DNA of 64,000 nt, from NCBI GenBank assembly GCA_019753155.1, contig JAIELG010000017.1:49576-113575 (forward strand). Reading direction: 5' to 3'. This document shows positions 16,089-31,231 of the stretch, piece by piece. How positions within the stretch are numbered: position 1 is the stretch's first letter; every line of letters begins with the position of its first letter. The stretch comes from Burkholderiales bacterium. Lineage in GTDB: Bacteria; Pseudomonadota; Gammaproteobacteria; Burkholderiales; JABEVD01. The translations under genes and the position numbers were made by a program. The notes beneath the pieces are model-generated. The model searched no databases, was not told where the DNA came from, and saw only the letters and a list, made by a program, of their open reading frames with translations.

Positions 16089-17804
16089 ATGGCCTCTGTC
16101 TCCCCGGTTTCCGAAATCCACGAAAGTTTTGCCTCCCTGTTCGAGGAAAGCCTAGGCCGCATGGAAATGCGCGCGGGCGAAGTGATCACCGCTGAAGTGG
16201 TGCGCGTCGATTACAACGTCGTCGTGGTCAATGCAGGATTGAAATCCGAAAGCTTCATCCCCGTCGAGGAATTTCGCAACGAAAAAGGCGAAATCGAAGT
16301 CAAGCCCGGCGATTTTGTCTCCGTCGCAATCGAGTCCCTCGAAGACGGCTACGGCGAAACCCGTCTTTCCCGCGACAAGGCAAAACGCCTCGCAGCCTGG
16401 CAGGAACTGGAAGAAGCGCTGGAAAAAGGCACGATCGTGCAGGGCCTCGTCACCGGAAAGGTCAAGGGTGGTCTCACGGTCATGATCAACAGCATCCGCG
16501 CCTTCCTGCCCGGATCGCTCGTCGATACGCGCCCGATCAAGGACACCTCTCCCTTCGAAGGCAAGGAACTCGATTTCAAGGTCATCAAGCTCGACCGCAA
16601 GCGCAACAACATCGTGGTTTCGCGCCGCGCTGTCATGGAAGCTTCCCTGGGCGCAGACCGCCAGGCCCTGCTGGAGAGCCTGCAGGAAGGCGCCATGGTC
16701 AAGGGCATCGTCAAGAACATCACCGATTACGGCGCATTCGTCGACCTGGGCGGAATCGACGGCCTGCTGCATATCACCGATCTCGCATGGCGCAGGGTCA
16801 AGCATCCTTCCGAAGTGCTGGCAGTCGGCGATGAAGTCGAAGCCAAGATCCTCAAATTCGACAAGGAAAAGAACCGCGTCTCCCTCGGCCTCAAGCAACT
16901 CGGCGACGATCCTTGGGTCGGCCTTTCCCGCCGCTATCCGACGGGAACCCGTCTTTTCGGCAAGGTCAGCAACCTCACCGACTATGGCGCTTTCGTCGAG
17001 ATCGAGCCCGGCATCGAAGGTCTCGTGCATGTTTCCGAAATGGACTGGACCAACAAAAATGTTCATCCTTCCAAAGTCGTTCAGCTCGGCGACGAAGTAG
17101 AAGTGATGATCCTCGAAATAGACGAAGATCGCCGCAGGATTTCTCTGGGCATGAAGCAGTGCATGCCCAATCCCTGGGACGAATTCGAAATGAACCACCA
17201 GAAGGGTGACCGCGTGCGTGGACAGATCAAGTCGATCACCGATTTCGGCGTGTTCATCGGCCTGCCGGGCGGGATAGACGGCCTCGTCCATCTTTCCGAC
17301 CTTTCCTGGACATTGCCCGGCGAAGAAGCCGTGCGCAATTACAAGAAAGGCGACGAACTCGAAGCCATCGTTCTTTCCATCGACATCGAGAGGGAGCGCA
17401 TTTCCCTCGGCGTCAAGCAGGCGGAAGGGGATCCCTTCAATGCCTTCGTCGCGACCAATGACAAGAACAGCATCGTAACCGGAACGGTCAAGTCCATCGA
17501 TGCCAAGGGCGCTGTCATCGATCTCGGCGACGACATCACCGGCTATCTGCGCGCATCCGAAGTGGCGCGGGACAGGGTGGACGACATCCGCAATCACCTC
17601 AAGGAAGGCGATGCCGTCGAAGCCGTGATACTCAATATCGACCGCAAGAACCGCACCATCAACCTGTCGATCAAGGCCAAGGATCAGATCGAGGAATCCG
17701 CTGCGATGCAGAAGATTTCGACCGACAACGCCGGAAACGCAGGGACGACGAGCCTCGGCGCATTGCTCAAGGCCAAGCTCGAAGTCAAGAAAAACGAACA
17801 ATAA
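16089..17804 (+). CDS. rpsA: 30S ribosomal protein S1
   Basis: 571 aa with six S1 repeats (recurring ...G.V...TDYGAFV.L.GGIDGL.H.S... pattern). Conserved cmk-rpsA-ihfB order. Confidence 0.97.
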
Positions 17805-17813
17805 GGATTTGCC

Positions 17814-18098
17814 ATGACAAAGTCCGATCTGATCATGAGACTTGCAGAGAGACATCCCCAACTCGTCCTGAAGGACGCGGAAATGGCTGTCAAGATGGTT
17901 CTGGACGTAATGACGGCGAGTCTCGCCGAAGGTCAGCGGATAGAAATCAGGGGTTTCGGCAGTTTCAGCCTGAACTACCGGCCTTCGAGGATAGGACGGA
18001 ATCCGAAATCCGGCGAGAAAGTCATGGTGCCGGCAAAATATGTTCCGCATTTCAAGGCTGGAAAAGAACTGAGAGAGCGGGTCGACAGCGACAAATAA
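17814..18098 (+). CDS. ihfB: Integration host factor subunit beta
   Basis: 94 aa beginning MTKSDLI..LA, with IEIRGFGSF....R..R.GRNP.TGE.V....K.VP.FK.GKELR. Confidence 0.95.
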
Positions 18099-18124
18099 AC
18101 TCGCGGCTTTCCTGTTAAAATAAT

Positions 18125-18158
18125 GGCGGCATGTCGAAAGACGATGCCGCCTTTTTTT
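18125..18158 (+). terminator. Rho-independent terminator after ihfB
   Basis: GGCGGCAT-gtcgaaagacg-ATGCCGCC forms a perfect 8-bp GC-rich stem, followed by T7. Confidence 0.8.
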
Positions 18159-18174
18159 AGCTTTCGGGTTAACC

Positions 18175-18417
18175 ATGCGCTATCTGTTCTGGATTTCGAG
18201 GCTGTCGCTGTTTCTGCTGTTTTTCAGTTTCGCTCTGAAAAACACGGAGACGACGGCATTGCACTACTACCTGGGATACCAATGGCATGCGTCGCTCGCA
18301 CTGATACTGCTCGTATTTTTCACCTTCGGTATCGGCGTAGGGCTGATGGCCAGCTTCGCCACGATTTTCAGGCAGAGGCGCGAAATCGCACAGCTCAAAA
18401 AACAGAAGAGCGAATAG
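18175..18417 (+). CDS. lapA: Lipopolysaccharide assembly protein A (YciS-like small inner-membrane protein)
   Basis: 80 aa with two predicted TM helices. It lies immediately upstream of lapB (2-nt gap) and downstream of ihfB, as in E. coli. Confidence 0.75.
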   Translation: MRYLFWISRLSLFLLFFSFALKNTETTALHYYLGYQWHASLALILLVFFTFGIGVGLMASFATIFRQRREIAQLKKQKSE

Positions 18418-18418
18418 C

Positions 18419-19588
18419 ATGGAAATCCAGTCATGGTGGTTGCTGGCCCTTCCCCTCTTTTTCGGGCTGGGCTGGGTGGCGGCAAGAATAGACCTCAAAC
18501 ACCTCCTCTCCGAATCGAGGGCGCTTCCGCAATCCTATTTCAAGGGACTCAATTTCCTGATGAACGAACAGCCCGACAAGGCGATCGAGGCGTTCATCGA
18601 CGTCATCAAGGTCGAACCCCAGACCATAGAACTGCATTTCGCGCTCGGCAGCCTCTTCAGGAGGCGCGGGGAAGTCACCCGCGCGATCAGGATGCATCAG
18701 TCCCTGCTGGAAAGAAACGATCTCGACCAGGACAGGAAACTCCACACCCTGTTCGAAATCGCCCAGGATTATCTCAAGGCGGGGCTTCTGGACCGCGCAG
18801 AGGAATCGTTCGTCCAACTGGATGGCACACCCTATGCCGAACCTTCCCTCAAGTTCCTGCTCGAAATTTACGAACAGGAAAAGGATTGGCTGAAAGCCGT
18901 CGATACGGCAAGGCAACTCGAAAAAGTCTCGGGGCAGTCCTACCAGAAGGAAATCGCCAATTTCTATTGCGAACTCGCGGCGCATGAAATGATGAATTCT
19001 AAAATCCAGGATGCGGGCGCCCATCTCGAAGACGCATTGAGCGTTCACAGGCGCTGCGTCAGATCCAACGTGCTGCTCGGCGACCTGGAAATGAACCGGG
19101 GCAATTTCGAAGCCGCCATCGATGCCTGGAAGCGCATCGAATCGCAAAGCCCCCTTCACCTTGCCCTGGTCTCCGAGAAAATGCTGGATGCCTATGGGAA
19201 ACTCGGAAAATTCGAGGAGGGACTGCACCTGCTGAAGGGCTATCTTGCGAGTTATCCTTCGGTCGAATTGCTCAATGTCGCCTTCGATGCCGAACTGAAA
19301 GCGAACGGAGTCGAGGCCGCCTATCACCTGGTGCGCGACGAACTGAGGAAAAATCCCAGCCTTCCCGGACTCGACAGGCTGCTCGAAGCGCAGCTCATGG
19401 AAGCGCCGCCCGAGCGCAGAAAGGATCTCGAACTCATCAAGAATCTGGTCCACCAGCATGCGAAAAGCCTCGCACAATACCGCTGCGAAACATGCGGGTT
19501 CAATGCGAAACAGTTTTACTGGCGCTGCCCTGCCTGCGGCGGATGGGAAACTTTCCCGCCCAAACAGTCCGAAGAACGCGACAAATGA
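18419..19588 (+). CDS. lapB: Lipopolysaccharide assembly protein B (YciM; TPR + rubredoxin-like zinc finger)
   Basis: 389 aa with an N-terminal TM helix and TPR repeats. The C-terminus YRCETCGF....[13 protein letters not shown] is the LapB metal-binding motif. Confidence 0.9.
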
Positions 19589-20277
19589 ATTCACCCATCA
19601 TCATAGCCCTCGATTTTCCGGAAGCCTCCCATGCGATCCGCTTCGCCGACACCCTCGACCCTGCCCTGTGCAGGCTGAAAGTCGGGAAGGAGCTTTTCAC
19701 CCAGGCCGGCCCCTCTCTCGTCGAAACCTTGATGAAAAAAGGATTCGATATTTTCCTGGATCTGAAATTTCACGACATTCCCAACACCGTGGCGGCCGCA
19801 TGCAAGGCTGCCGCCGGACTCGGGGTATGGATGGTCAATGTCCATGCGCTGGGGGGAAGCCGGATGATGAAAGCTGCGAGGCTCGCGCTCGCGGATGCTC
19901 CATGCAAGCTGATCGCAGTCACGCTTCTCACCAGCATGGGGCGCGAAGACATCGAGGAAATCGGCCTTCAGGGGGAGCCCATCGATATCGTCGGGCGCCT
20001 GGCGGCGCTCGCCAGATCCTGCAATCTCGACGGCGTGGTGTGCTCGGCGATCGAAGCCGCCATGCTCAGAAAGAAATTCGGCGCGGACTTCTGTCTCGTC
20101 ACGCCCGGCATTCGCCCTTCAGGGGCCTCGAGCGACGACCAGAAGCGCATCATGTCGCCAATCGAAGCCATTGAAAGCGGCTCGGATTATCTCGTCATCG
20201 GCAGGCCGGTCAGGGAAGCGCCGGATCCCCTGCGCGCGCTGGAATCCATACTGGAAGAAATAAAATGGAAAAATTGA
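19585..20277 (+). CDS. pyrF: Orotidine 5'-phosphate decarboxylase
   Basis: Motifs [25 protein letters not shown] and VIGRP. Start placed at ATG 19585 (ATGA overlap with the lapB stop) rather than track start 19492. Confidence 0.92.
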
Positions 20278-21212
20278 ACTTCACCCAGGCCAGGCTGCTG
20301 GTTGTCGGGGATGTCATGCTGGATCGCTACTGGTTCGGGGAAGTCGAGCGCATCTCGCCCGAAGCGCCGGTTCCCGTCATCAAGGTCGGGCGTGTCGAAG
20401 ACAGAGCCGGGGGCGCCGCGAACGTCGCACGCAACATCGCGTCCCTCGGCGCAAAAGTATCCCTGCTTTCCGTCATAGGCATGGATGAAGCGGGAAACAG
20501 CCTGGAGAAGCTCGTCAAACATGACGGGGTCGAAGCCATCCTGCACCGGGACGAGAGCATTTCGACCACGATCAAACTGAGGGCGATCGCGAGGCACCAG
20601 CAATTGCTGCGGATCGATTTCGAAACCCAGCCCAGCTTCGAGATACTGGATTCCGTTCTGGCGGATTTCACCAATGAGATCGAAAAAGCGGATGTCGTCA
20701 TACTCTCCGATTACGGCAAAGGCGGGCTTGGGCATATCGAAAAAATGATCCATATTGCAAGAGCCGCGAAGAAACCCGTGCTCGTCGATCCCAAGGGAGA
20801 GGATTATACCCGCTACCGTGGCGCCACCCTGATCACGCCGAATCGCAGCGAATTCAGGCAGGTTGCGGGGTCATGGAAGAGCGAATCCGAATTGACGGAA
20901 AAAGCGCAGCGCCTGCGGGAAGAACTGGACCTGACCGCCCTCCTCGTCACCCGTAGCGAGGAAGGAATGAGCCTTTACAGGGAAGAAGGCGTTTTGCACG
21001 AAGGCGTGAAAGCCATAGAAGTATTCGATGTCAGCGGAGCGGGAGACACCGTGATCGCAACATTCGGAACCATGCTGGCAAGCGGCGCCTCTTTCGTGGA
21101 TGCCATGAGAATGTCCAACCGGGCGGCGGGAATCGTGGTGGGCAAGCTCGGCACAGCCGTCGTGACGCGCGAGGAACTGGAAAACCAGGAGGAGTCATCA
21201 TGTATATCATAG
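20265..21212 (+). CDS. rfaE1: D-glycero-beta-D-manno-heptose-7-phosphate kinase (stand-alone RfaE domain I / HldA type)
   Basis: 315 aa of the PfkB ribokinase family. N-terminus is [25 protein letters not shown] and C-terminus is DVSGAGDTV. There is no adenylyltransferase domain. Confidence 0.88.
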
Positions 21213-22195
21213 TTACCGGAGCGGCCGGGTTCATAGGCTCCAACATCGTCAGGGGACTCAACGAGCGCGGCATCACTGAAATCATCGCGGTCGACAACAT
21301 GAAGCAATCCGGGAAATTCAGGAACCTGGTCGATTGCGAAATCGCGGATTATTTCGACAAGACCGAATTCATGGATATGCTCACCTCGAATACTTTCGGA
21401 AGCCGCGGAGCCGCTGTCCTGCATCAGGGCGCATGCTCCGACACGATGGAGCCGGACGGGCGCTACATGATGGAAAACAACTACCGCTATTCCATGACGC
21501 TGCTGGACTACTGCCAGCGCCAAGGCATCCCGTTCATTTACGCTTCATCCGCATCCGTCTATGGCAGCGGAGAAGTCTTCCTGGAATCGAGGAAATTCGA
21601 AGCGCCGCTCAATGTCTACGGCTACTCGAAATTCCTGTTCGACCAGGCCGTGCGCAAAAAGATGACGAAAAGAAGCGCCCAGATCGCCGGCTTCCGCTAT
21701 TTCAACGTCTACGGCGCAGGAGAATCCCACAAGGGCAGGATGGCTTCAGTCGCCTATCATTTCTACAACCAGTTCAGGTCCACGGGAAGCGTCAAGCTTT
21801 TCGAAGGCTGCTCGGGCTATGGAAACGGCGAGCAGCGCCGGGATTTCATTTCCGTGGAAGACGTGGTGAAAGTCAACCTGCATTTCCTCGATCATCCCGA
21901 AATATCGGGCATTTTCAACGTGGGGACGGGCGCATCCGAACCCTTCAACAACGTTGCGGTTGCCACCATCAATGCCTGCCTCCACTACGAAGGCAGGGAG
22001 CCTTTGAACCTCACGGAAATGAAGGAGCGGGGAATGATCCAGTACATCCCTTTCCCGGAAGATCTGAAGAAACAGTACCAGAGCTTCACCGAAGCGGATA
22101 TAGGCGAGCTGAGGCGCTCGGGCTATGTCGAGTCCTTCCTGAACGTCGATGAAGGCGTCTCGCGCTACGTCGGCCAGTTGCTGTCTGGCACTTGA
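21200..22195 (+). CDS. hldD: ADP-L-glycero-D-manno-heptose 6-epimerase (RfaD)
   Basis: 331 aa beginning [17 protein letters not shown], with [14 protein letters not shown] and RYFNVYG. It appears full length, ending ...[14 protein letters not shown]. Confidence 0.95.
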
Positions 22196-22444
22196 TGCAC
22201 CACAAGGAACAGGCATGGACAACAGGTTCTGATCTTCGGTTCGCGCGCCAAGGGCACATTCAAGAATGGTTCGGACATCGATCTTGCCGTATTTGCCCCG
22301 ACCTTGAGCGAACAGAATTTCATCCGGCTGTGGAACGAACTGGATGCGTTGCCGCGGGTATTGCTGACACTGCTTAACGACTCAATGTCCAAATGCGACC
22401 ATCTCGCGCATCTACTGTTCGGGAAACGCCCGGCGTTACCCTGA
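22196..22444 (+). pseudogene. N-terminally truncated minimal nucleotidyltransferase (MNT / Pol-beta-type NTase) remnant
   Basis: A frame-2 open frame starts directly after the hldD stop and has no start codon: ...QQVLIFGSRAKGTFKNGSDIDLAVFAP...RLWNELDALP. The GS-x9-12-D.D NTase motif is intact, but the ~20 N-terminal residues are missing and the C-terminus is divergent. Confidence 0.6.
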
Positions 22445-22478
22445 ACCCTCAATCCCATGCGACCCAAGGAGCAAAAAA

Positions 22479-22835
22479 ATGGAATACATCTTGATTTATC
22501 GCCAACCGGCTGAAATCTACGAAATGAACAAGGATCCGATCAAAGGGCCGCCAAATCTGGCTGCGTGGCAACAATACATGGACGCCATGGGCGACGCCGG
22601 CATCCTCAGGGGCGGAAATCGGCTTGAGGCCTTATCCGGCACTTCGGTCAAAGTCGTGAACGGCAAACGCCAGGTTCAGGACGGGCCATTTGCAGACAGC
22701 AAAGACCTGCTCGGCGGATATGTGATCATTGACGCACCGACACTGGATGAAGCGCTACGTTGGGCAGAGTTCAGCCCGAGCTCCAAAACCGGATTTACCG
22801 ATGTCTACCCGGTAATGGCCATGCCGAAGAAGTGA
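22479..22835 (+). CDS. YCII-related (DGPF-type) domain protein
   Basis: 118 aa with the hallmark DGPFADSKDLLGGYVIIDAPTLDEALRWA. A strong SD (AAGGAG) lies 8 nt upstream. Confidence 0.8.
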   Translation: MEYILIYRQPAEIYEMNKDPIKGPPNLAAWQQYMDAMGDAGILRGGNRLEALSGTSVKVVNGKRQVQDGPFADSKDLLGGYVIIDAPTLDEALRWAEFSPSSKTGFTDVYPVMAMPKK

Positions 22836-24085
22836 CTCCATCCGATCACGTCCATGCCGCCGCCGAAATGGCGGCGCGCCAAAGCTATGGCAAACTCCTG
22901 GCATGGCTGTCGTGGCAATGGCGGAACGTCGGCGCGGCAGAAGATGCGCTGTCGGAAGCTTTTGCGTCAGCACTTAAACATTGGCCACGAGACGGGGTTC
23001 CCGTGTCTCCCGAAGCATGGTTATTGACGGCTGCCAGGCGAAACCTGTTAATGGCTGCACGACGTCAACGCTTGGAAGACGACCCGCGCGTCTTGATGCT
23101 CCTGCCCGATTTGACGGCAGAGCCCGTCGATATGCAGACCATTCCAGACGAACGTCTGCGTTTGTTGTTTGTTTGCGCACACCCTGCGATTGACTCATCT
23201 GTGCATACTGCGCTCATGCTGCAACTTGTGCTGGGTATCGATGCGGCGCGCATTGCAAATGCATTTTTGTTAAGCCCGGCTGCGTTGAGCAAACGATTGA
23301 CGCGCGCAAAGGCAAAAATCCGCGATGCGGGCATTCCGTTCAGCGAACCCGAACCAGGCGAATTGGGAACAAGGATCGGAGCCGTACTCGAAGCCCTATA
23401 TGGCGCATACACCGTCAACGATTCCACAATCCTCGATGTCGAAGCGGATGATCTGGCGGACGAGGCGCTGTTTCTCGCACAGCTGATGAGCGAACAGATT
23501 GAGGGTGACGCGGAAGTATACGGACTTTACGCATTGCTGTTGTATTGCGAATCGAGAAGACGCGCCCGATTCGATGAGGCCGGAACCTTCGTCCCGCTGG
23601 ACGAACAGGCGCACAGCCTCTGGCGCAATGACTTCATCCATAAAGCCGAATTCAATCTGTCCAGGGCAGCAAAATTAAAGCAGGTAGGGCCGTATCAAAT
23701 CGAAGCAGCGATACAGGCAGCGCATATGCAAGGCGTTCTGGATCAGAATACGCCATGGCGGGAAATTGCCATGCTCTACGAACAGTTGCTTTTTTTGGGG
23801 CCCACCGTTGGCGCAAAAATCGGACATGCCATCGCAGTGGCCCGAGCGACCGAAAACCCCGCCCAAGGTATGGAACTCCTGGATGCGATCCAAACCTCCG
23901 GCGTGGCAGGCCATCAACCATGGTGGGCCGCGCGCGCCAGCCTGCTTGCGATGATGGGCCGCAAAAAGGAAGCCGAAACAGCGTACACGAGGGCGATTGC
24001 ACTCACCAGAAACGAGGCTGTTCAAACGTGGCTCAAACGAAAGCGTGAGAAACTTTCGCTGTCAAGTTCAAACAATCAAAATTGA
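22832..24085 (+). CDS. ECF-like RNA polymerase sigma factor with long C-terminal (TPR-like) extension (COG4941-type)
   Basis: Region-2-like AEDALSEAFASALKHWPRDGVP.SPEAWLLTAARRN..D..RR and region-4-like LSPAALSKRLTRAKAKIR, followed by a ~200-aa helical extension. Start proposed at GTG 22832, overlapping the YCII stop (GTGA). The track ATG at 22760 lies inside the YCII gene. Confidence 0.75.
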   Translation: MTPSDHVHAAAEMAARQSYGKLLAWLSWQWRNVGAAEDALSEAFASALKHWPRDGVPVSPEAWLLTAARRNLLMAARRQRLEDDPRVLMLLPDLTAEPVDMQTIPDERLRLLFVCAHPAIDSSVHTALMLQLVLGIDAARIANAFLLSPAALSKRLTRAKAKIRDAGIPFSEPEPGELGTRIGAVLEALYGAYTVNDSTILDVEADDLADEALFLAQLMSEQIEGDAEVYGLYALLLYCESRRRARFDEAGTFVPLDEQAHSLWRNDFIHKAEFNLSRAAKLKQVGPYQIEAAIQAAHMQGVLDQNTPWREIAMLYEQLLFLGPTVGAKIGHAIAVARATENPAQGMELLDAIQTSGVAGHQPWWAARASLLAMMGRKKEAETAYTRAIALTRNEAVQTWLKRKREKLSLSSSNNQN

Positions 24086-24193
24086 ATATGTTGAGGCTGC
24101 CCCCTGGCCTGGCCGCCAGTTGAATTCACGCCGGACGGTTCGCCCGGCCTCCGGTAGCGAAGGCGCGCCTTCGGGGTCTAGAAAAGTAGCATG

Positions 24194-24361
24194 TCATTTC
24201 GCTTTTCTCACGATCCTGCCCACCGTAGTGAAGTGGATGCCGAAATGGTCGGCGATTCCTTGATAAGAATACCCGCCCGTTGCATGGGCGGCAACAATCG
24301 CAGCGTTCCGGTCCGGCATGCGGCGCGAGATTTCCTGCAGCGGAGGAAGCGGCGGACGGGA
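24194..24361 (-). pseudogene. C-terminal remnant of a transposase-family protein (Y1/IS200-like type carrying a DnaA-C-like helix-turn-helix)
   Basis: Only the last ~55 codons of track ORF 24194..24586 look protein-like: RPPLPPLQEISRRMPDRNAAIVAAHATGGYSYQGIADHFGIHFTTVGRIVRKAK*. This pattern matches, from memory, the C-termini of COG1943-type transposases. The upstream part is missing and overlaps the hldD fragment. Confidence 0.4.
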
Positions 24362-24466
24362 TGGAGCGTGACATGATACAGCCAAGCATAGCAGGGAACA
24401 TGCTACTTTTATAGATCTGACCCAGAAGGTGCGTATGTGCCATATGTGACCCCGTATGTGTGCACA

Positions 24467-24544
24467 GGTGGCTACCAAACCCCCTTTCTGAACGTCGAGG
24501 AAGGCGTCTCGCGCTATGTCGACCAGTTGCTGAAGAGAAGTTGA
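24467..24544 (+). pseudogene. Orphan 3'-terminal fragment of a second hldD allele
   Basis: It encodes GGYQTPFLNVEEGVSRYVDQLLKRS*, against [25 protein letters not shown] in the intact gene. Positions 24485-24532 match 22136-22183 at 44/48 nt. No upstream hldD sequence is present. Confidence 0.8.
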
Positions 24545-24812
24545 CGATACTTTGGGAAAGCGATTCCTGCTGCAGCATGCAGACATGAGTATGCGGAGAT
24601 TGGCCTATTCATTTGCCATTTCAGAGCGCTCGCCAATGATCGCTATTGGCCATTAACCGGGAAACCGGAAGGGACAACGGACGCTACCCTTTGATTCATG
24701 TGCAGACTTGCTCAGGCTTCGCGGACGGATACTCCGCGTTTGGAGATGCGGCGCCTGATGCCTGCTGATGCCACACGGACGCCATCGGGGCCGACTTTTC
24801 TTTGGTATCGTC

Positions 24813-24844
24813 AACCGTAACTGTCAGATTTGACAGTTACGGTT
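24813..24844. repeat. Perfect 14-bp inverted repeat (candidate operator) upstream of the LamG-protein operon
   Basis: AACCGTAACTGTCA-gatt-TGACAGTTACGGTT, located 92 nt upstream of ATG 24936. The right arm contains a consensus -35 hexamer, TTGACA (24830-24835). Confidence 0.7.
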
Positions 24845-24935
24845 TTCCAAAAAGCATCTTAAGATGAAATGACTCTTCGACGGGCGCATGCGCCTTTTGA
24901 GGAAAATCCATCACCATTTCCAAAGGAAAAGTTCA

Positions 24936-27900
24936 ATGATGCTCGGCGATCCCCGCACCGACGGCAGCTATGTATCCATGGCCGTGGACTCCCTGTCCTG
25001 GGCGAAGACCAGCGCCGCCGCCGGCAGCTTGTTTACCGCGACGACGCAGGTTTCGGTCGATGCCTGGATAAGATTCAATGGGCTTCCTGCCAATACGGCG
25101 GCAATTGCCCAGGCGGGAGTATTCGCTTTCGGCAGCCAGGGAACCTCGGTCTATTTCCAATTCAACGGATTGCCGATCGTCCTGTCCGATCCGACTCAGG
25201 CGCAACTCCTGGACGACCACTGGCACTATATATGCGCCACCTTCGACGGCAGCATGGTGCGGCTCTATATCGACGGCCAGTTCAATACCGGCCAAAGCTG
25301 CATGGGGCAGGTGCCTATAAGCACCAATCCCGTGTTGATCGGCCAAGGGGTCCAGGGGCTGGTGCGTCGTGTTCGCATCTATAAAACGAACCTGAGCGCT
25401 GCCGCCGTGCTGAACAACATGTATGGAACACCCGCTAGCGGGACTTTGGCTGCGGATTTCGACTTCAGCGTCAATCCGCCGGTGGACCGGGGTCCGTCGG
25501 CCTATCCCGTCAGCCTGCAGAACAATGCGATCATGCTCAAGGTTTCGCCCGCCGTGTCCATGGGAACGACTGGATTTGTGCGGCCCATGGGAGACAAGGG
25601 CATCAATCCGGGCGGCGCGCAGGTCGACCCCTATACGGTGCAGGCCTGGGTCTACGTCACATCCGCCGTCAATCCGGTTCAAGCCATTTTCGTCAACAGC
25701 GATCTCATGATGGACACCGGAATGGCGCTGTATTTGCAGTACGATGCGACGGCCTCCGCGTTTCGTCTGGTTTCGCAGCGTGGCTCCAGCGGCCAAACGC
25801 TGACTTCGATGGGAACGATCCCGGCGGGGGTCTGGGCCAATGTTGCTACCGCTTTCGACGGAACAACGCTTTCTCTCTACCTCAATGGCGTCCTGGACAG
25901 CACCAAGGCCTGCCCCCCCATACCGCTTTACAGTCAGGTCGGCGATCTGTTGATCGGGGCAGCCATCGCCCAGGGCATTCCATCCGGAGCCACGACCCTG
26001 CAGGGATTCATCCGTGAAGTGGATGTCTGGTCGAGAGCCTTGAGCGCCACCGAAATCGCAAGCTTCATGGCCAACCCCCCGGACGTTCAGTCGCCGGGGC
26101 TGCAAGGCGCCTACGTCTTCACCAACTCGCCGGCGCGCAATCAGGCCAACGGCCACCCGATCGGCCTGGCGGAAGGGGCGGTGCTGTCGGGCCAGCTCGG
26201 CGCGGCGCCGCCAACCTCAACCGAGATGGTCAGGGCGGAAGCCCCTCTGCCAGAAATGGGACTTGATCCGGAAAAAATGGCATCCATCCGTGCCGGGATC
26301 GACTTCTCCGCCCTGCACAAGGAAAACGAGCGAGCCTTCGACGAAGCCATGGCTGACGACATGGCCGCCTTCGGCGATCCGAAGGACAAGGTCCGAATCA
26401 AGGAAGCCTGGGCCGAGGCGAGGCGGAAACTGGTGGAAAATCCGACCGCCCTCCCGTTTCTGACGACGCATCACATCATTGACGGCGAACGCTTGCTCAT
26501 CGTCCACCGGCCAGGCGGCTCCTACGTCGCCTATCGGGCACCCGCCAATGCCATCGATGACTGCACGATGTGGAAGGTGCGCCTAGTATTCACCTTGGTT
26601 GCCGGAGCGATCGACGCCTTCACTGGCGTTGGCAGCACTTTGGGCGACAAAGCAATCGTTTTTATCGGACGGGTGCTGACGATCCCGGCTATCGCCGCAC
26701 AAATGGCCAATGGCATAAAGATGACTGGTGCCGCGGTCTTCACGTTCTTGAGCCTGCTGTATACCCAAGGATTGCTCAGACCGCTCATCCTGTTGTTGAT
26801 TGATGTCGGCTTCTGGACGCTCATCCGAGTCGTTGCCAATCTGTTGCTGATTGCGGCCGGCATCGGGACGGTTCGTATCGTGGCATCGCTGGCCGCGACT
26901 GCAGTCACTTTCATCACCGTCTATTTGAGCAAGCCGGCAAGCTGCGATCCGCTTCCCACGGTGACGCTGGCGAGCCTCGCTTTCGACTACGATCCGACGG
27001 GAGCTTCCGTCGAAGCCTTGACGATCCGGCGCAATTTCGGGACCGACGTGAATGTTCCGGAATGGATCCCCGGCAAAACGGTTGCGGCAGATTCGCCCTG
27101 CGCCTATGCCTATTCCACGGTGTCCGGAGCCACGCCTAAGATTCAGGTAGTTGTCAACATTCCGGCGCCGACGACTCATGCAGTCAAGATTCAAGCCACG
27201 GGAGGCGGCATATTGGGGTCAATCGACCCGATCACAGTCAATTTCGGCGGTGTAATCAGCGCCACCATCACACTGCCTCTTTCGCATCATACGCTGGCGA
27301 GCGGGGGCGTGCAAAGGCAGGACGTGACTTGGACCTGGCAGTATCAGGTGGATGGAGGATCCTGGATCACCATGGCCACCAGCAATCACCGTGTCTATAT
27401 CATCCTCGCGACCCCGACACAGCCCTGGCAACAGGGGGCCAATCGTGGCAACCAGCAGCTGCCCTGGACGGATGTTCTGGACTATGCCTGCGTATGGACG
27501 GCTGGAGCCAAAACAAGCGACCAGGTCATGAATCTCGTCACTACCCAGGTGAATTCCAATATCAAACTTGTCTACGACACCACAAGCGGCGCTTCCTTTT
27601 ACACGGCGGAAAGCGGTAATCTTTCGCGCTTCCTTTGCGGTCTTTTCGTTGACTATCTGAAAACCGGAAAAGGAAACGGCAAGATCGTCAACTGCACCGA
27701 TTGCGCCACGATCGTCACCAGCTTCGCCAATATACTGGGCTGCAATGCCTCCGAATCGATAATGACCGACAGCCCAAATGTGCATGGGTTCTTGTGCAAC
27801 CAAATCCTGGCCATAGGCACGACCACTTGGTCTATACCATTCCCGACTTCTCCCAATCCTGGAGTTTTTAGTTACCATGAAGTGGCTTGGACTGGCGCGG

Positions 27901-28178
27901 GTTCTTCACTGTCAGACCCGCTTTATGATGCCTGTCTTCAATACGACACCGGCCCAAATCCTTGGGGAACAGGACCGCATACTGCAGGACTGCCTTTGAA
28001 GGTCCCCTTTACCACGAATCTGGCTCCGATCCCGTCACCCTATGTTCCCATACCCACGCCCTATACCGGCACAAGCTATAGGGAACGCCTAGCGGCCAAT
28101 ACTGCTGCCGGAATACCGAGATGCATCCCTTTTGGCCAGTGGCCCAACACCAATTCTGGCCGCAGGCCTGTCCTTTAG
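24936..28178 (+). CDS. Large multidomain protein of unknown function: 2x LamG-like (concanavalin-A-like lectin) domains, central 4-5 TM-helix block, C-terminal beta-sandwich plus transglutaminase-like Cys/His/Asp domain
   Basis: 1080 aa from ATG 24936 (SD AAGGAAAAG; the track start 24888 adds 16 aa). The two LamG signatures are VSVDAWIRF...HWHYICATFDGSMVRLYIDG...VRRVRIYKTNLSAAAV and YTVQAWVYV...VWANVATAFDGTTLSLYLNG...FIREVDVWSRALSATEI. The hydrophobic block lies at 26568-26930. The C-terminal motifs are NCTDCATIVTSFANILG...FSYHEVAW...LYDAC. No N-terminal signal peptide is evident. Confidence 0.85.
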   Translation: MMLGDPRTDGSYVSMAVDSLSWAKTSAAAGSLFTATTQVSVDAWIRFNGLPANTAAIAQAGVFAFGSQGTSVYFQFNGLPIVLSDPTQAQLLDDHWHYICATFDGSMVRLYIDGQFNTGQSCMGQVPISTNPVLIGQGVQGLVRRVRIYKTNLSAAAVLNNMYGTPASGTLAADFDFSVNPPVDRGPSAYPVSLQNNAIMLKVSPAVSMGTTGFVRPMGDKGINPGGAQVDPYTVQAWVYVTSAVNPVQAIFVNSDLMMDTGMALYLQYDATASAFRLVSQRGSSGQTLTSMGTIPAGVWANVATAFDGTTLSLYLNGVLDSTKACPPIPLYSQVGDLLIGAAIAQGIPSGATTLQGFIREVDVWSRALSATEIASFMANPPDVQSPGLQGAYVFTNSPARNQANGHPIGLAEGAVLSGQLGAAPPTSTEMVRAEAPLPEMGLDPEKMASIRAGIDFSALHKENERAFDEAMADDMAAFGDPKDKVRIKEAWAEARRKLVENPTALPFLTTHHIIDGERLLIVHRPGGSYVAYRAPANAIDDCTMWKVRLVFTLVAGAIDAFTGVGSTLGDKAIVFIGRVLTIPAIAAQMANGIKMTGAAVFTFLSLLYTQGLLRPLILLLIDVGFWTLIRVVANLLLIAAGIGTVRIVASLAATAVTFITVYLSKPASCDPLPTVTLASLAFDYDPTGASVEALTIRRNFGTDVNVPEWIPGKTVAADSPCAYAYSTVSGATPKIQVVVNIPAPTTHAVKIQATGGGILGSIDPITVNFGGVISATITLPLSHHTLASGGVQRQDVTWTWQYQVDGGSWITMATSNHRVYIILATPTQPWQQGANRGNQQLPWTDVLDYACVWTAGAKTSDQVMNLVTTQVNSNIKLVYDTTSGASFYTAESGNLSRFLCGLFVDYLKTGKGNGKIVNCTDCATIVTSFANILGCNASESIMTDSPNVHGFLCNQILAIGTTTWSIPFPTSPNPGVFSYHEVAWTGAGSSLSDPLYDACLQYDTGPNPWGTGPHTAGLPLKVPFTTNLAPIPSPYVPIPTPYTGTSYRERLAANTAAGIPRCIPFGQWPNTNSGRRPVL

Positions 28179-28190
28179 GAGGAACCCCAA

Positions 28191-28712
28191 ATGGATCGAC
28201 AAGCCTGGCTTGATGGCGTGAAACAACGCTTCGGGTTTGATACTTGGCCCCGACGCACGGGAGCAATGGCCCTGAGCCGGACACAGGGCTTTGTTTTAAA
28301 TTCGGGAACCTGGGCTGATACTTGGGTTCTTGAGCAACGCCTTCCCCACGGCGACTCCGGTTATGCCGATTATTTTCATCATACCGAGAATTCCAACCAA
28401 CGTATCATGGTTCGCATATCCGAATATTCAAGCCACGAAGCGGCATTGGAAGCTATGCTGTCCATCCTGTCCCAATCCATGACCGTAACTTTGCCCAGGC
28501 TCGACGAAAGGGGAGTGATGGTCGGCGATGTGGGATTTTGCGGTTATGGTGAAGACATCCATAGCCTGGTTTTCGTCCGCCACAATATCCTGATCGACAT
28601 CCGCAGCATCGGCGACCAAGCGGTTGCCGTCGTGGATCCGGCAAAGCAGGTGGATGCGCAAATTCAAACCGCCGTATCGCAGGAAGACCTGTCCAAGGAG
28701 AAGAAACAATGA
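28191..28712 (+). CDS. Hypothetical protein (173 aa), second gene of the LamG operon
   Basis: A strong SD (TAGGAGGA) lies 9 nt upstream, and the gene starts 13 nt after the upstream stop. I recognise no family. No signal peptide or TM segment is evident. Confidence 0.7.
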   Translation: MDRQAWLDGVKQRFGFDTWPRRTGAMALSRTQGFVLNSGTWADTWVLEQRLPHGDSGYADYFHHTENSNQRIMVRISEYSSHEAALEAMLSILSQSMTVTLPRLDERGVMVGDVGFCGYGEDIHSLVFVRHNILIDIRSIGDQAVAVVDPAKQVDAQIQTAVSQEDLSKEKKQ

Positions 28713-29758
28713 ATGCCATGAAGCCGTTCGCCGCCAATGCCGCCCAGTACAATGATTTGTTCGTTCGAGACAATTTTTCCGATACGGGCACTTATCCTTC
28801 CACCGGCAATCCCTGCCAATCGCCCGACATCATCCCGTACCAAAGCGGAACCTTGTCCTGGGCGACCGCCAATTCGACCTACAACGGCCCTGACCAAGGA
28901 TTGGCGATCATCAACGGCGGGGTCAACAACATCTACGTCCGCGCCAAGAACCTGAATACGGTCGCAGGGGCGGGGGCGGCCAACCTTTATTACGCCAACG
29001 CCTCCCTGTTCCTGCTCCCGAATACCTGGACTCAAATCTATAGCGCCGGTGGCGCAGGCTCTTTGCAGTTCGTCGACGGAACCGGCAATACCGCCATCGC
29101 CGCCGGCGGCATTGCGATCAGCAATCCGTCTTTTCTGCTGACCGGATTGCCGGCAGGCCCTCACTATTGCCTGATCGCAGTGGTTCAGACCGCCGCGCAT
29201 CCCGTCACCGTGCCGACAAGTTTTCCGACCAATGCCGCCTTCGTTCAGTGGGTGCAGAACAACCCCGCGGTGGGCTGGCGCAACATCTTCTATCAGCCCA
29301 ACACTTCCGTCCAACTGGTGCGAACCTTCAATTTCGCCAGTGTCAACCCGACCAGCGCCTATTTCCATTTCCGGATCCTGGGGCGTGGTTTTGTCACCGG
29401 GACAGGCATCAACGCCCAATGCACGGATCAGTCCTGCCCGATCAACCAGAACATGACGCTGCCTGCGCCCGATATAAACGGCAATCAGATCACCGGTTTC
29501 GATGTGAGCGTTCCGGGAAACTTCAGCGGCAACCTGGTCATCACCGCCACTTCGCCTGGCGGTCCTTTTCCTGTCGGCGCGACCCTGACGGTCACTTATT
29601 ATCAATATCCAAGCGCTGAAGACGAACTCGACCTGGCCGTGGCCGGAATCTTCACTGTGGCGAAAGAGGCCGATCCTGCCCGTTATGCGGCGATGTTGAT
29701 TCAAATCGGCGAATGCACGATCGGCATCACGAACAATCCGGCGCAAGCGGATCTTTGA
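28709..29758 (+). CDS. Hypothetical protein (349 aa), third gene of the LamG operon; Gly/Asn/Thr-rich, probably all-beta
   Basis: ATGA overlap with the upstream stop, and SD AAGGAGAAG. The motif string FVRDNFSDTGTYPSTGN..QSPDIIP ... NNIYVRAKNL ... GPHYCLIAVV ... NNPAVGWRNI resembles, from memory, a beta-sandwich module seen in some secreted peptidase-associated proteins. This is not verified. Confidence 0.7.
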   Translation: MNAMKPFAANAAQYNDLFVRDNFSDTGTYPSTGNPCQSPDIIPYQSGTLSWATANSTYNGPDQGLAIINGGVNNIYVRAKNLNTVAGAGAANLYYANASLFLLPNTWTQIYSAGGAGSLQFVDGTGNTAIAAGGIAISNPSFLLTGLPAGPHYCLIAVVQTAAHPVTVPTSFPTNAAFVQWVQNNPAVGWRNIFYQPNTSVQLVRTFNFASVNPTSAYFHFRILGRGFVTGTGINAQCTDQSCPINQNMTLPAPDINGNQITGFDVSVPGNFSGNLVITATSPGGPFPVGATLTVTYYQYPSAEDELDLAVAGIFTVAKEADPARYAAMLIQIGECTIGITNNPAQADL

Positions 29759-29777
29759 TGCCGCGCCATGATGCGGT

Positions 29778-30902
29778 TTATTCGATGACGACCGGCGCGA
29801 AGCCGCCGCCTGTCGTTCTGAAATTGGTGGTCTGACCCTGATAGAGCCTCGCCGCAAGAAGCTGGATTCGTCCCTTGTAGGCAAAATTGCGGTAATCGTA
29901 CTTCATGCCCTCGATTTCAGGAGGCGGCACGAACTCCTGGGCGACATAAGGGCCTTTCAGGATTTCCTCCCATACCCTTTTCGTCAGCTTTTCCCCCCGG
30001 TAAACCGCTTTCGAAGCGTACCCCGACCCCGGCTTGAAAAAAAGCCTGCGCCGCTCCCGCCACAATTCGTCCGGATCCTCGTTTTCCACGATGCGGGTTT
30101 TCGCGATCCCGCCCAGCAGCAATTCGACGCTTGCATCGGAAAGTCCGAAACCGACCAGGCTCGCCGGATCGGTCAATACCGAAAGGTTGCGCTTGTCCGC
30201 AAAGAGCGCATGCGCCCTGGGGTGCGGCGTCAACACCACCGCGCCCGCAAGATAAGCTGCTTTCAATGCCGGATGCGCTTCGAGAGAAAAGTCGGTCAGC
30301 CTGTTGTAGACGAGATCGACCCGGATATCGTCGTGATAAAGGACGCCATCCCTGAATTCGAGATCTTTCGCTTCGGCAATCACGGCGGAAATCGCGTGCT
30401 TTACGAACAGGTTCCTGAAGAGGACGAATTCGGGATAAAGGAATTGGAAAAAACAATCGTCGTCGACGATCGCAACATGGCTCAGTTTCCTTCCGCCCCT
30501 GACCAGGGACCATTCCTCCATGAACATGTCGAAAAAGGCTTCCTCCGCATTGCCCGACTCCCCCCATGCCCTCGCAAGCAACGCATTGAGGTAAGCGCCC
30601 CCTGCATTGGTATTGATTTCGATCAGCCTGGGGCCGCTCTCGCCGATATGAAAATCATATCCGAAGAAAACGCCGCGCGTTCCGGGATCGAATGCGGCGA
30701 TGGAAGGCGCCCATTGCAGCACCATTTCCCTGTATCCGGGAATGGCCGCAACGGACTCGATGGCCGCAATGATTGCGGCCATCTTATCGGCATGAGTCCT
30801 GGATACCGGAACCTTGAGAGGCGAAAAAAGGTTCCCCGGTATGGAATCCGCTTCGAACTCGCCGCGGATTTTCCCGAAATCCGGAGTCAATTCGACAGCC
30901 AC
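29778..30902 (-). CDS. ATP-grasp-like protein (glutathionylspermidine-synthase / circularly permuted ATP-grasp type)
   Basis: Motifs FFGYDFHIGESGPRLIEINTNAGG, FFKPGSGYASKAVYRG and YVAQEFV resemble GSP-synthase-like ATP-grasp enzymes. The start is uncertain: GTG 30902 or TTG 30890 near the upstream stop. The track ATG at 30986 lies 100 nt inside the upstream gene. Confidence 0.55.
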   Translation of the reverse strand: MAVELTPDFGKIRGEFEADSIPGNLFSPLKVPVSRTHADKMAAIIAAIESVAAIPGYREMVLQWAPSIAAFDPGTRGVFFGYDFHIGESGPRLIEINTNAGGAYLNALLARAWGESGNAEEAFFDMFMEEWSLVRGGRKLSHVAIVDDDCFFQFLYPEFVLFRNLFVKHAISAVIAEAKDLEFRDGVLYHDDIRVDLVYNRLTDFSLEAHPALKAAYLAGAVVLTPHPRAHALFADKRNLSVLTDPASLVGFGLSDASVELLLGGIAKTRIVENEDPDELWRERRRLFFKPGSGYASKAVYRGEKLTKRVWEEILKGPYVAQEFVPPPEIEGMKYDYRNFAYKGRIQLLAARLYQGQTTNFRTTGGGFAPVVIE

Positions 30903-31231
30903 TCCTCCGCCTGATGCGGGTCGTGGTAAACCCTGATTTCGGCATCGGTGAACATGTTGGAGAGCCACGCCAGGGAACCCACCCACTCGCTATCGGTCAA
31001 AACAGCGATCTTCCCGAAGGCATAAGGGTGCGCCTTGCCATACTTGATTTCCTCCCAAACCATGTCGATGGTGTATTTCACCATTTTCGTGAGATCGAGG
31101 AGGAGATTGACCCGCCCCTTGAATTCGAGCCTGTAATTGACCTGGTCTTCGAATTCCTTGAAGTCCGACAGCGTGAATTCACCGAATACGGATGCGCACA
31201 GGCGGCTTTCGTCATGTTCTATCGTAATCAT
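30887..31231 (-). CDS. STAS/SpoIIAA-like small protein (DUF3478-type)
   Basis: 114 aa in which G.F...DF..FE......EF.G.VNLL.DL.....YT...W.E......H...F.KIAV..D..W matches the SpoIIAA-like family pattern. ATGA overlap with the rlmB stop. Confidence 0.6.

Follow-up and report, generated by a model that had tools for sequence, protein, structure and literature searches.

The stretch of DNA analysed here, hereafter the window, comprises 64,000 nucleotides (nt) from a Burkholderiales bacterium (contig JAIELG010000017.1 of assembly GCA_019753155.1), in which the 3' end of the hldD gene occurs twice, once in the intact gene and once as a fragment (copy 2) further downstream. Intact hldD (21200..22195, + strand) encodes an ADP-glyceromanno-heptose 6-epimerase of 331 amino acids (aa), which scored 415 bits against TIGR02197 (cut-off 274.6) and matched Pfam Epimerase, and it is overlapped upstream by the gene for the PfkB-type kinase hldE (20265-21212, assigned by Pfam). 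Its identity was assigned from the full-length match above the curated cut-off and from the hldE-hldD context; copy 2 is a fragment and not a gene. In all relatives hldD is syntenic with lapB-pyrF-hldE. The right flank of the locus is a conserved gene of 402 aa on the opposite strand (29778..30986, −), here called the convergent gene, which adjoins hldD directly in four relatives (L001-L004; loci of relatives are numbered L and sequencing runs X). Compared with the species-representative genomes, the extra DNA of the window covers 22184-29777 (7.6 kb), with copy 2 in its middle, and the 2.3-kb islet delimited in the initial annotation was therefore drawn too small with respect to these more distant relatives.

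Two modules make up this DNA. Module A, on the left, consists of a decayed HEPN-MNT toxin-antitoxin (TA) pair and a YCII-sigma pair, all on the + strand. Directly after hldD lie the hldD-HEPN spacer and the first two codons of a HEPN gene of the HI0074 family (22196..22221; codons ATGGAC at 22215-22220), the gene itself being deleted with the joint at ~22220/22221. There follow the remnant of an MNT-type nucleotidyltransferase (22221..22445), which has lost its 5' part and also 105 nt internally (deletion at 22362/22364), an intact YCII-domain protein (22479..22835; Pfam PF03795) and an intact extracytoplasmic function (ECF)-type sigma factor with DUF6596 (22832..24085; Pfam Sigma70_r2 and DUF6596). 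The last two share 96.6% and 97.6% aa identity, respectively, with their counterparts on contig L093. Module B, on the right, is a LamG three-gene cassette, also on the + strand, with a LamG-domain membrane protein (24936-28178; Pfam Laminin_G_3) and two partners (28191-28712 and 28709-29758). Between the modules stand a short repeated element (24166..24433), a filler of 33 nt with three GTATGTG-like repeats (24434..24466), for which no similarity to hldD or to any relatives' locus was found, and the orphaned 3' fragment of hldD, termed hldD', of 25 codons and a stop (24467..24544, +). As the initial annotation had stated, no integrase is present: Pfam, NCBIfam and PADLOC scans of the open reading frames in 22184-29777 revealed no recombinase, and the only DNA-binding remnant there is a helix-turn-helix (HTH) of ~60 codons inside the short repeated element.

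A repeat search of the window returned a direct repeat of 50 nt between 22134-22183 (the core of copy 1, +, within the working hldD) and 24483-24532 (the core of copy 2), identical at 46/50 positions, which contains the 44/48 match of 22136-22183 with 24485-24532 noted previously. The four mismatches are of the kinds described at that time, with TTC/TTT and TAC/TAT synonymous, GAT/GAG exchanging D and E, and GGC/GAC exchanging G and D. Copy 2 also stays in frame as an hldD C-terminus, its translation ending in ...GGYQTPFLNVEEGVSRYVDQLLKRS before the stop codon, and the similarity between the copies does halt at ...CAGTTGCTG, the last four codons being unlike. The longest exact run common to both copies is 17 nt and lies inside the 46/50 stretch; the arms differ. 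When the hldD C-terminus was searched against the window with tblastn, copy 2 was found at E=6e-7 and all other matches had E values of at least 0.2; neither a third hldD end nor a displaced convergent-gene end was found within the window by tblastn. Alignment and tblastn revealed no hldD-like sequence upstream of ~24467, and copy 2 is thus a 25-codon stub, not part of the longer hldD pseudogene that had been considered as an alternative. Over its length hldD' differs from copy 1 at 13/65 positions, and these differences are unevenly distributed, with 4/50 in the core vs 9/15 just upstream (p=7e-5). Repeats of this type (35-200 nt in length, identity of at least 85%, spacing of 0.3-12 kb) are uncommon: the window and 1.44 Mb of related loci together contain ~9 independent cases.

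The two copies differ most tellingly in their tails. In the working gene the last three codons and stop (22184..22195, +; TCTGGCACTTGA, SGT-stop) are unrelated to the tail of L082, the closest outgroup, and unlike the outgroup tails in general (KRC-, KTC-, RNC- and RSC-stop), and the orthologous alignment of the window with L082, which spans hldD, ends at 22183. The tail of copy 2 (24533-24544; AAGAGAAGTTGA, KRS-stop) matches that of L082 (AAGAGATGTTGA, KRC-stop) at 11/12 nt, and 24482-24544 is 90.5% identical to the extreme end of the L082 hldD, stop codon included. Copy 2 therefore retains the ancestral-type end and the SGT-stop of the working gene is lineage-specific, which bears out the earlier view that the far copy is the original-type end. 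Within the 48-nt core, either copy shares ~90% identity with L082, vs 81% gene-wide, so that a contrast between core and arms is also expected of two orthologous hldD alleles; the same core/arm pattern as between copy 1 and copy 2 was seen between either copy and the L082 orthologue. The third codon positions of hldD 22136-22183 (FLNV(D/E)EGVSRYV.QLL) are unusually conserved with respect to L082.

The gap that separates hldD from the convergent gene is a hot spot whose cargo differs from lineage to lineage, and the window has modules A and B in it side by side. In the five closest species-representative genomes (hldD 74-77% aa identity), the stop codons of the two genes are 4-8 nt apart or overlapping; L001-L004 have no cargo, the two genes there ending 4-8 nt from each other or sharing up to 13 nt. 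Closer relatives, drawn from the protein collection, carry other cargo at the same point, namely a Hint-domain gene in L082 (hldD 85% aa), katG in L090 (83%), a cold-shock gene in L087-89 (81%), and a cold-shock gene with a dCache-GAF-HD gene in L083-85 (81%). The C-terminal tails of both flanking genes vary in almost every lineage, and because of the tight spacing of the stops in L001-L004, an insertion at the junction rewrites both of them. Among more than 90 relatives' loci, none apart from the sister strain described below has YCII or sigma at the hldD locus, in agreement with the accessory nature assigned to the segment after hldD. When the islet DNA was compared with 80 relatives' loci, only the hldD core was matched, and a DNA-level search found no second hldD end in relatives' loci. 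The YCII-sigma pair forms a two-gene unit of its own, which occurs at ~90% nt identity in other contexts (runs X8-X10; L094-96; L092, where it lies next to folD and pgi), the similarity breaking off sharply at 22379 and 24086, and YCII homologues of ~89-92% aa identity were found in other contexts in L092 and L094-96.

Module B without module A is found in L099 (hldD 77% aa), where the order is hldD, 82 nt, LamG (80% aa), g2, g3 (89% aa) and the convergent gene, and where nt identity to the window is 76.8% for the LamG module, 76.2% for hldD and 75.3% for the convergent gene. The initial annotation had proposed looking for genomes in which hldD directly precedes the DNA right of copy 2; L099 does have hldD followed by LamG, but its identity is only 76% and it lacks the 270 nt present after copy 2 in the window. 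A near-identical empty site of the type hldD-LamG was not found, and in JGI metagenomes no close module B was detected (best 74% aa). An apparent joint 22098->24482 in run X9 was considered as an empty site and rejected, as it is the hldD of another organism; the other sequencing runs contained just low-depth pieces of the same strain, or unrelated orthologues. LamG and both partners constitute a fixed unit of three genes (L099, L100), and the LamG protein has homologues dispersed over several phyla (Sphingomonas 73%, Brevundimonas 67%, Methanosarcina 62%, Archangium 56%, Streptomyces 43%). PADLOC and NCBIfam gave no match for module B or the convergent gene. A perfect 14+14 palindrome lies 5' of the LamG gene (24813..24844), its centre CTGTCAGATnTGACAG being kept at the same place in L099 (L099:525-545) although the two genomes are 76% identical; it is probably the operator of the LamG cassette.

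Another gene end is duplicated at this intergenic point in L083-85. There, the 3' end of the convergent gene recurs as a direct repeat of 52 nt (51/52) on both sides of a 2.24-kb insert whose single gene encodes the dCache-GAF-HD protein (L083:11515-13860, also L084 and L085), and L087:10430-10482 is the single-copy empty site. The working gene takes its new tail (...FAPVFVQEGNR-stop) from the insert, and the old stop stays with the displaced copy (...FAPVF-stop). We take this case either as a further one-sided join or as pointing to a recurrent mechanism.

The comparison with a sister strain proved most informative. It was recovered from L097 and L093 (same sample), from L098 (an NCBI metagenome-assembled genome) and, independently, from groundwater run X4. 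L097 and L098 are 98.85% identical to window 17790-22221 (4,432 nt), and the sister hldD protein (P0001) differs at one residue from that of the window, with the same tail (...QLLSGT-stop) and one synonymous difference within it. After the sister hldD come 19 nt and then ATGGACATCGAACGC..., which in both L097 and L098 is the start of a HEPN gene of the HI0074 family (TIGR01987); since the sister sequence continues there, window 22196-22221 represents the native spacer with two HEPN codons. Similarity of the window to L097 stops at 22221, where similarity to L093 (MNT) begins. L093, found via the nearest sigma homologue (98% aa), is a 2.5-kb contig 97-98% identical to window 22221-24165 and carries, in order, the HEPN C-terminus, an intact 108-aa MNT (Pfam NTP_transf_2/Polbeta; MntA-like), YCII, sigma, 103 nt and the end of the convergent gene, the latter 92.8% identical to window 29783-29948. 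In run X4, one contig tracks the window to 22221 and then departs, and another joins 24165->29794. The sister strain has module A with HEPN and MNT whole, the islet standing directly beside the convergent gene, and has only one hldD end; the short repeated element, hldD' and module B are missing. From this comparison, the "NTase remnant" of the initial annotation is indeed a remnant, namely of the MNT gene in a HEPN-MNT pair, truncated by a simple deletion that runs from HEPN codon 3 into MNT, with the 105-nt internal deletion in addition. The 103 nt that follow sigma in the sister, before the convergent gene, are absent from the window, in which no similarity to them was found. They were therefore rejected as a derivative of module B, and the difference between window and sister is a replacement, with neither strain a simple insertion or deletion derivative of the other.

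The left border of this replacement coincides with a miniature inverted-repeat transposable element (MITE). The element (~268 nt, 24166..24433) has inverted ends at ~24166-24194 and 24398-24433, with a 17/18 inverted repeat extendable to ~29-36 nt, and its left end is the point at which the sister strain diverges (24165/24166). It has terminal inverted repeats (TIRs), is small, lacks a transposase and exists in several copies with different flanks: its depth in run X1 was 186 vs 51 in the surroundings (3-4x), and the other copies run into other flanks. The "transposase-HTH remnant" described previously is thus this multi-copy MITE, the HTH remnant lying on its minus strand (24194-24376) with weak HTH_23, HTH_SB and HTH_28 matches below cut-off. 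Window 24159-24172 is a perfect 14-nt palindrome, GAAGGCGCGCCTTC, composed of the last 7 nt in common with the sister and the first 7 nt of the MITE. In L082, four direct copies of a ~30-nt unit (GGAAAATGCATCTTTTCTAGACTTGACCCC) occupy L082:10992-11380 from the hldD stop codon on; the unit resembles the right end of the window MITE (24394-24423) and is followed by a gene with a Hint/intein-like segment.

Divergence between the window and the sister strain changes along the locus. The upstream core has 51/4432 differences (1.15%), even along its length, and module A has 59/1804 (3.3%). In the convergent gene, 12/88 positions differ in 29783-29870 (13.6%), 0/78 in the next stretch and 23/1396 (1.65%) further in, the excess at the end over the region further in being significant (p=2e-7). 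The 5.6-kb stretch missing from the sister is thus edged by hldD' on the left and by the last ~90 nt of the convergent gene on the right, each ~10-20% diverged from the resident allele, and the two values are not different from each other (p=0.38). These last ~90 nt (29783-29870) appear, from their sequence, to be of diverged, donor-type origin.

Considering these results, we regard it as fairly probable that copy 2 is a leftover hldD allele at the seam between two independently acquired modules, and not the footprint of a mobile element. The locus exists in three arrangements, A alone in the sister strain, B alone in the more distant L099, and A-hldD'-B in the window, so that both parental arrangements are known; copy 2 carries the ancestral-type tail, and divergence steps up inside the homologous DNA of the convergent gene. 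From the sequences we infer the following route of recombination. hldD' would once have ended a full allele directly before module B, as hldD does in L099. An A-type and a B-type version of the locus would then have been joined, stranding the last 25 codons and the stop. On one side the exchange would have been homologous recombination of the ordinary kind within one of the flanking genes (the convergent gene if B entered, hldD if A entered); on the other side it would have been an illegitimate join at 24165-24467, now occupied by the MITE and 33 nt of filler. The step within the convergent gene, together with a left junction (24165, MITE, filler, hldD' from 24467) across which no similarity exists, fits homology-facilitated illegitimate recombination. 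Neither an integrase nor an att site would take part. If A moved into a B genome, copy 2 would be the displaced end of the resident gene, pushed aside without an integrase; if B moved into an A genome, copy 2 would be a passenger stub. The higher synonymous divergence (dS) of module A may lean slightly towards the former; that the crossover step in the convergent gene falls at the edge of the missing stretch may lean slightly towards the latter.

Several points weigh against this seam between modules. On the direction of the event the evidence leans slightly each way. The dS of module A is 0.080 vs ~0.045 for core genes, and divergence rises in the last 200 nt before 24165 (15/202); in view of both, the composite may have arrived as one piece, through two homologous crossovers, from a strain already possessing it, and would then have its origin elsewhere. 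The presence of a MITE exactly at the break lacks an explanation unless the element took part in the event. No single independent contig covers the 268-nt MITE, and the adjacency of its two sides rests on the window's own assembly. A donor hldD ending ...GGYQTPFLNVEEGVSRYVDQLLKRS before the stop was not among the 120 best hldD homologues, nor was a copy 2 donor allele found in JGI metagenomes with a degenerate DNA pattern, so that the search for a donor lineage proposed in the initial annotation returned none; a B-only strain of the same species was not found in any collection searched. Finally, the cleaner 52-nt duplication of the other flank's end in L083 hints at a recurrent mechanism.

The foremost alternative is that module A is the remnant of an integrative element in the hldD 3' end, as in the initial annotation, which had read 22196-24466 as probably what is left of such an element, or of successive ones, between an att-like pair of hldD ends (attL and attR). 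Integration would have been by an integrase or by a Campbell-type single crossover in the 50-nt core. Such an element would have supplied the new end and left copy 2 before a pre-existing LamG, and the sister would later have lost everything from the MITE to the convergent gene. The distribution of tails, ancestral-type on copy 2 and new on copy 1, is as it would predict, and the restriction of similarity to the core is that of attL/attR pairs, although the contrast between ~90% in the core and 81% gene-wide to L082 is normal between orthologous hldD ends. hldD directly before LamG does exist, in L099, TA pairs are typical mobile-element cargo, the bracketed insert of L083 with its empty site in L087 offers a parallel, and partial duplication of the homologous locus is a known outcome of single crossovers with circular DNA (PMC3240628). 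However, the sister strain has the same hldD-A junction and a more intact module A with a single hldD end, so the repeat does not flank the islet there, and neither an integrase nor a recombinase is encoded in 22184-29777. The "surrogate 3' end" is only 12 nt long, followed by 19 nt and the HEPN start codon, and is not an element-borne hldD copy. Integration must in addition account for the sister's 103 nt lacking in the window and for the 13.6% diverged end of the convergent gene, and the 5.6-kb loss in the sister would have to end exactly at the outer end of a MITE which the sister lacks. We therefore consider an integrative element unlikely.

A clade-specific system acting in trans could instead place cargo that has no integrase within the terminal ~50 coding nt of either convergently oriented gene, each time duplicating that stretch; this seems very unlikely to us. 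It would draw on the two independent end duplications of ~50 nt at one intergenic point (46/50 in the window, 51/52 in L083-85), in both of which the insert provides the working gene with a new tail and the old stop stays with the displaced copy, and on the TIR-like ~30-nt repeats, akin to the end of the window MITE, that are stacked after hldD in L082. That the hldD pair of the window and the 52-nt pair of L083-85 reflect one hitherto undescribed, integrase-less cargo-loading route, perhaps with a transposase or recombinase of the MITE family in trans, is correspondingly doubtful; were it true, the site would be a dedicated docking point and not a passive hot spot. No common motif was found at the ends of the inserts, the cores having only short GC-rich words in common, and the sister strain, L099, L087 and L001-5 are without a duplication at the same point. 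Moreover, both cases also fit one-sided illegitimate joins a few dozen nt inside a flanking gene.

It is highly improbable that the arrangement is an assembly artefact in which hldD-A and hldD'-B were misjoined through the repeated MITE, with more sequence between them. The concern arises because the MITE is multi-copy, the Logan contigs of the best-holding run end inside it, at 24215 and 24298, and none independently spans 24166-24433. Against this, both contigs have equal depth (51.8 and 50.3), and the MITE is shorter than the usual read-pair span. The three junctions, sigma with MITE, MITE with hldD' and hldD' with the downstream DNA, were each found in Logan contigs of other runs and studies with zero differences (pieces 23943-24184, 24225-24459 and 24356-24531). 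In all close relatives hldD has the convergent gene as its neighbour, and with this synteny and no second hldD or convergent-gene end elsewhere in the 64 kb, the right contig must follow the left. Even with collapsed sequence, hldD' would still precede module B. Least credible of all is an in-situ tandem duplication of the hldD end at insertion followed by neutral decay of copy 2, for although same-orientation direct repeats flank inserted DNA, uniform decay is rejected by the uneven divergence (4/50 vs 9/15), copy 2 and not copy 1 keeps the ancestral-type tail, and the sister has no copy 2.

The proposed seam has counterparts among known systems. Homology-facilitated illegitimate recombination is described as a documented route in PMC3240628, which cites de Vries and Wackernagel, 2002 (PMC122324) and Prudhomme et al., 2002 (PMC122325) in this context. 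Like such cases, the window has one homologous end, at the step in the convergent gene, and another join without homology; unlike them, it is read from sequence only, and a MITE occupies the illegitimate joint. Displacement of 3' ends leaving orphan 3' fragments has been proposed from comparative genomics for loci of Rhs and of type VI secretion systems (T6SS) (PMC5361080, which cites Jackson et al., 2009, PMC2935791). In those arrays, as in the window, incoming DNA anchors in a conserved part, cargo is added, the old 3' end is pushed downstream and events stack. In contrast, the gene concerned here is a housekeeping epimerase of lipopolysaccharide heptose and not a polymorphic toxin, only 25 codons in a single layer are displaced, and the window has no selective logic such as retained immunity genes.

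Elements flanked by attachment (att) sites but lacking a recombination module, such as cis-mobilizable elements (CIMEs) and decayed islands in gene 3' ends, form a further group. They resemble the window in the direct 3'-end repeat on both sides of accessory DNA, the TA cargo and the lack of an integrase, and differ in that here the islet occurs in the closest strain with no second repeat, the arms behave like orthologous alleles and the surrogate end measures 12 nt. In the minimal mobile elements (MMEs) of Neisseria, cargo is swapped between conserved flanking genes by homologous recombination. The window shares with these a fixed site, alternative cargo in each strain, the lack of mobility genes and raised divergence in the ends of the flanks, whereas classical MMEs undergo clean replacement and in the window two cargos stand in tandem, separated by a stub of a flanking gene.

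The hldD scar is thus most likely an unremarkable side product of gene exchange at a hot spot of the genome. It also calls for caution, since a duplicated gene end need not be an att site; the 99%-identical strain was decisive here, not the repeat itself. The comparison dates the LamG cassette as a recent strain-level gain or loss in a drinking-water/groundwater betaproteobacterium. The locus illustrates how two unrelated accessory modules can reach a tandem position between conserved genes without a mobility gene, with the C-terminal tail of a housekeeping gene being rewritten at each change of cargo.

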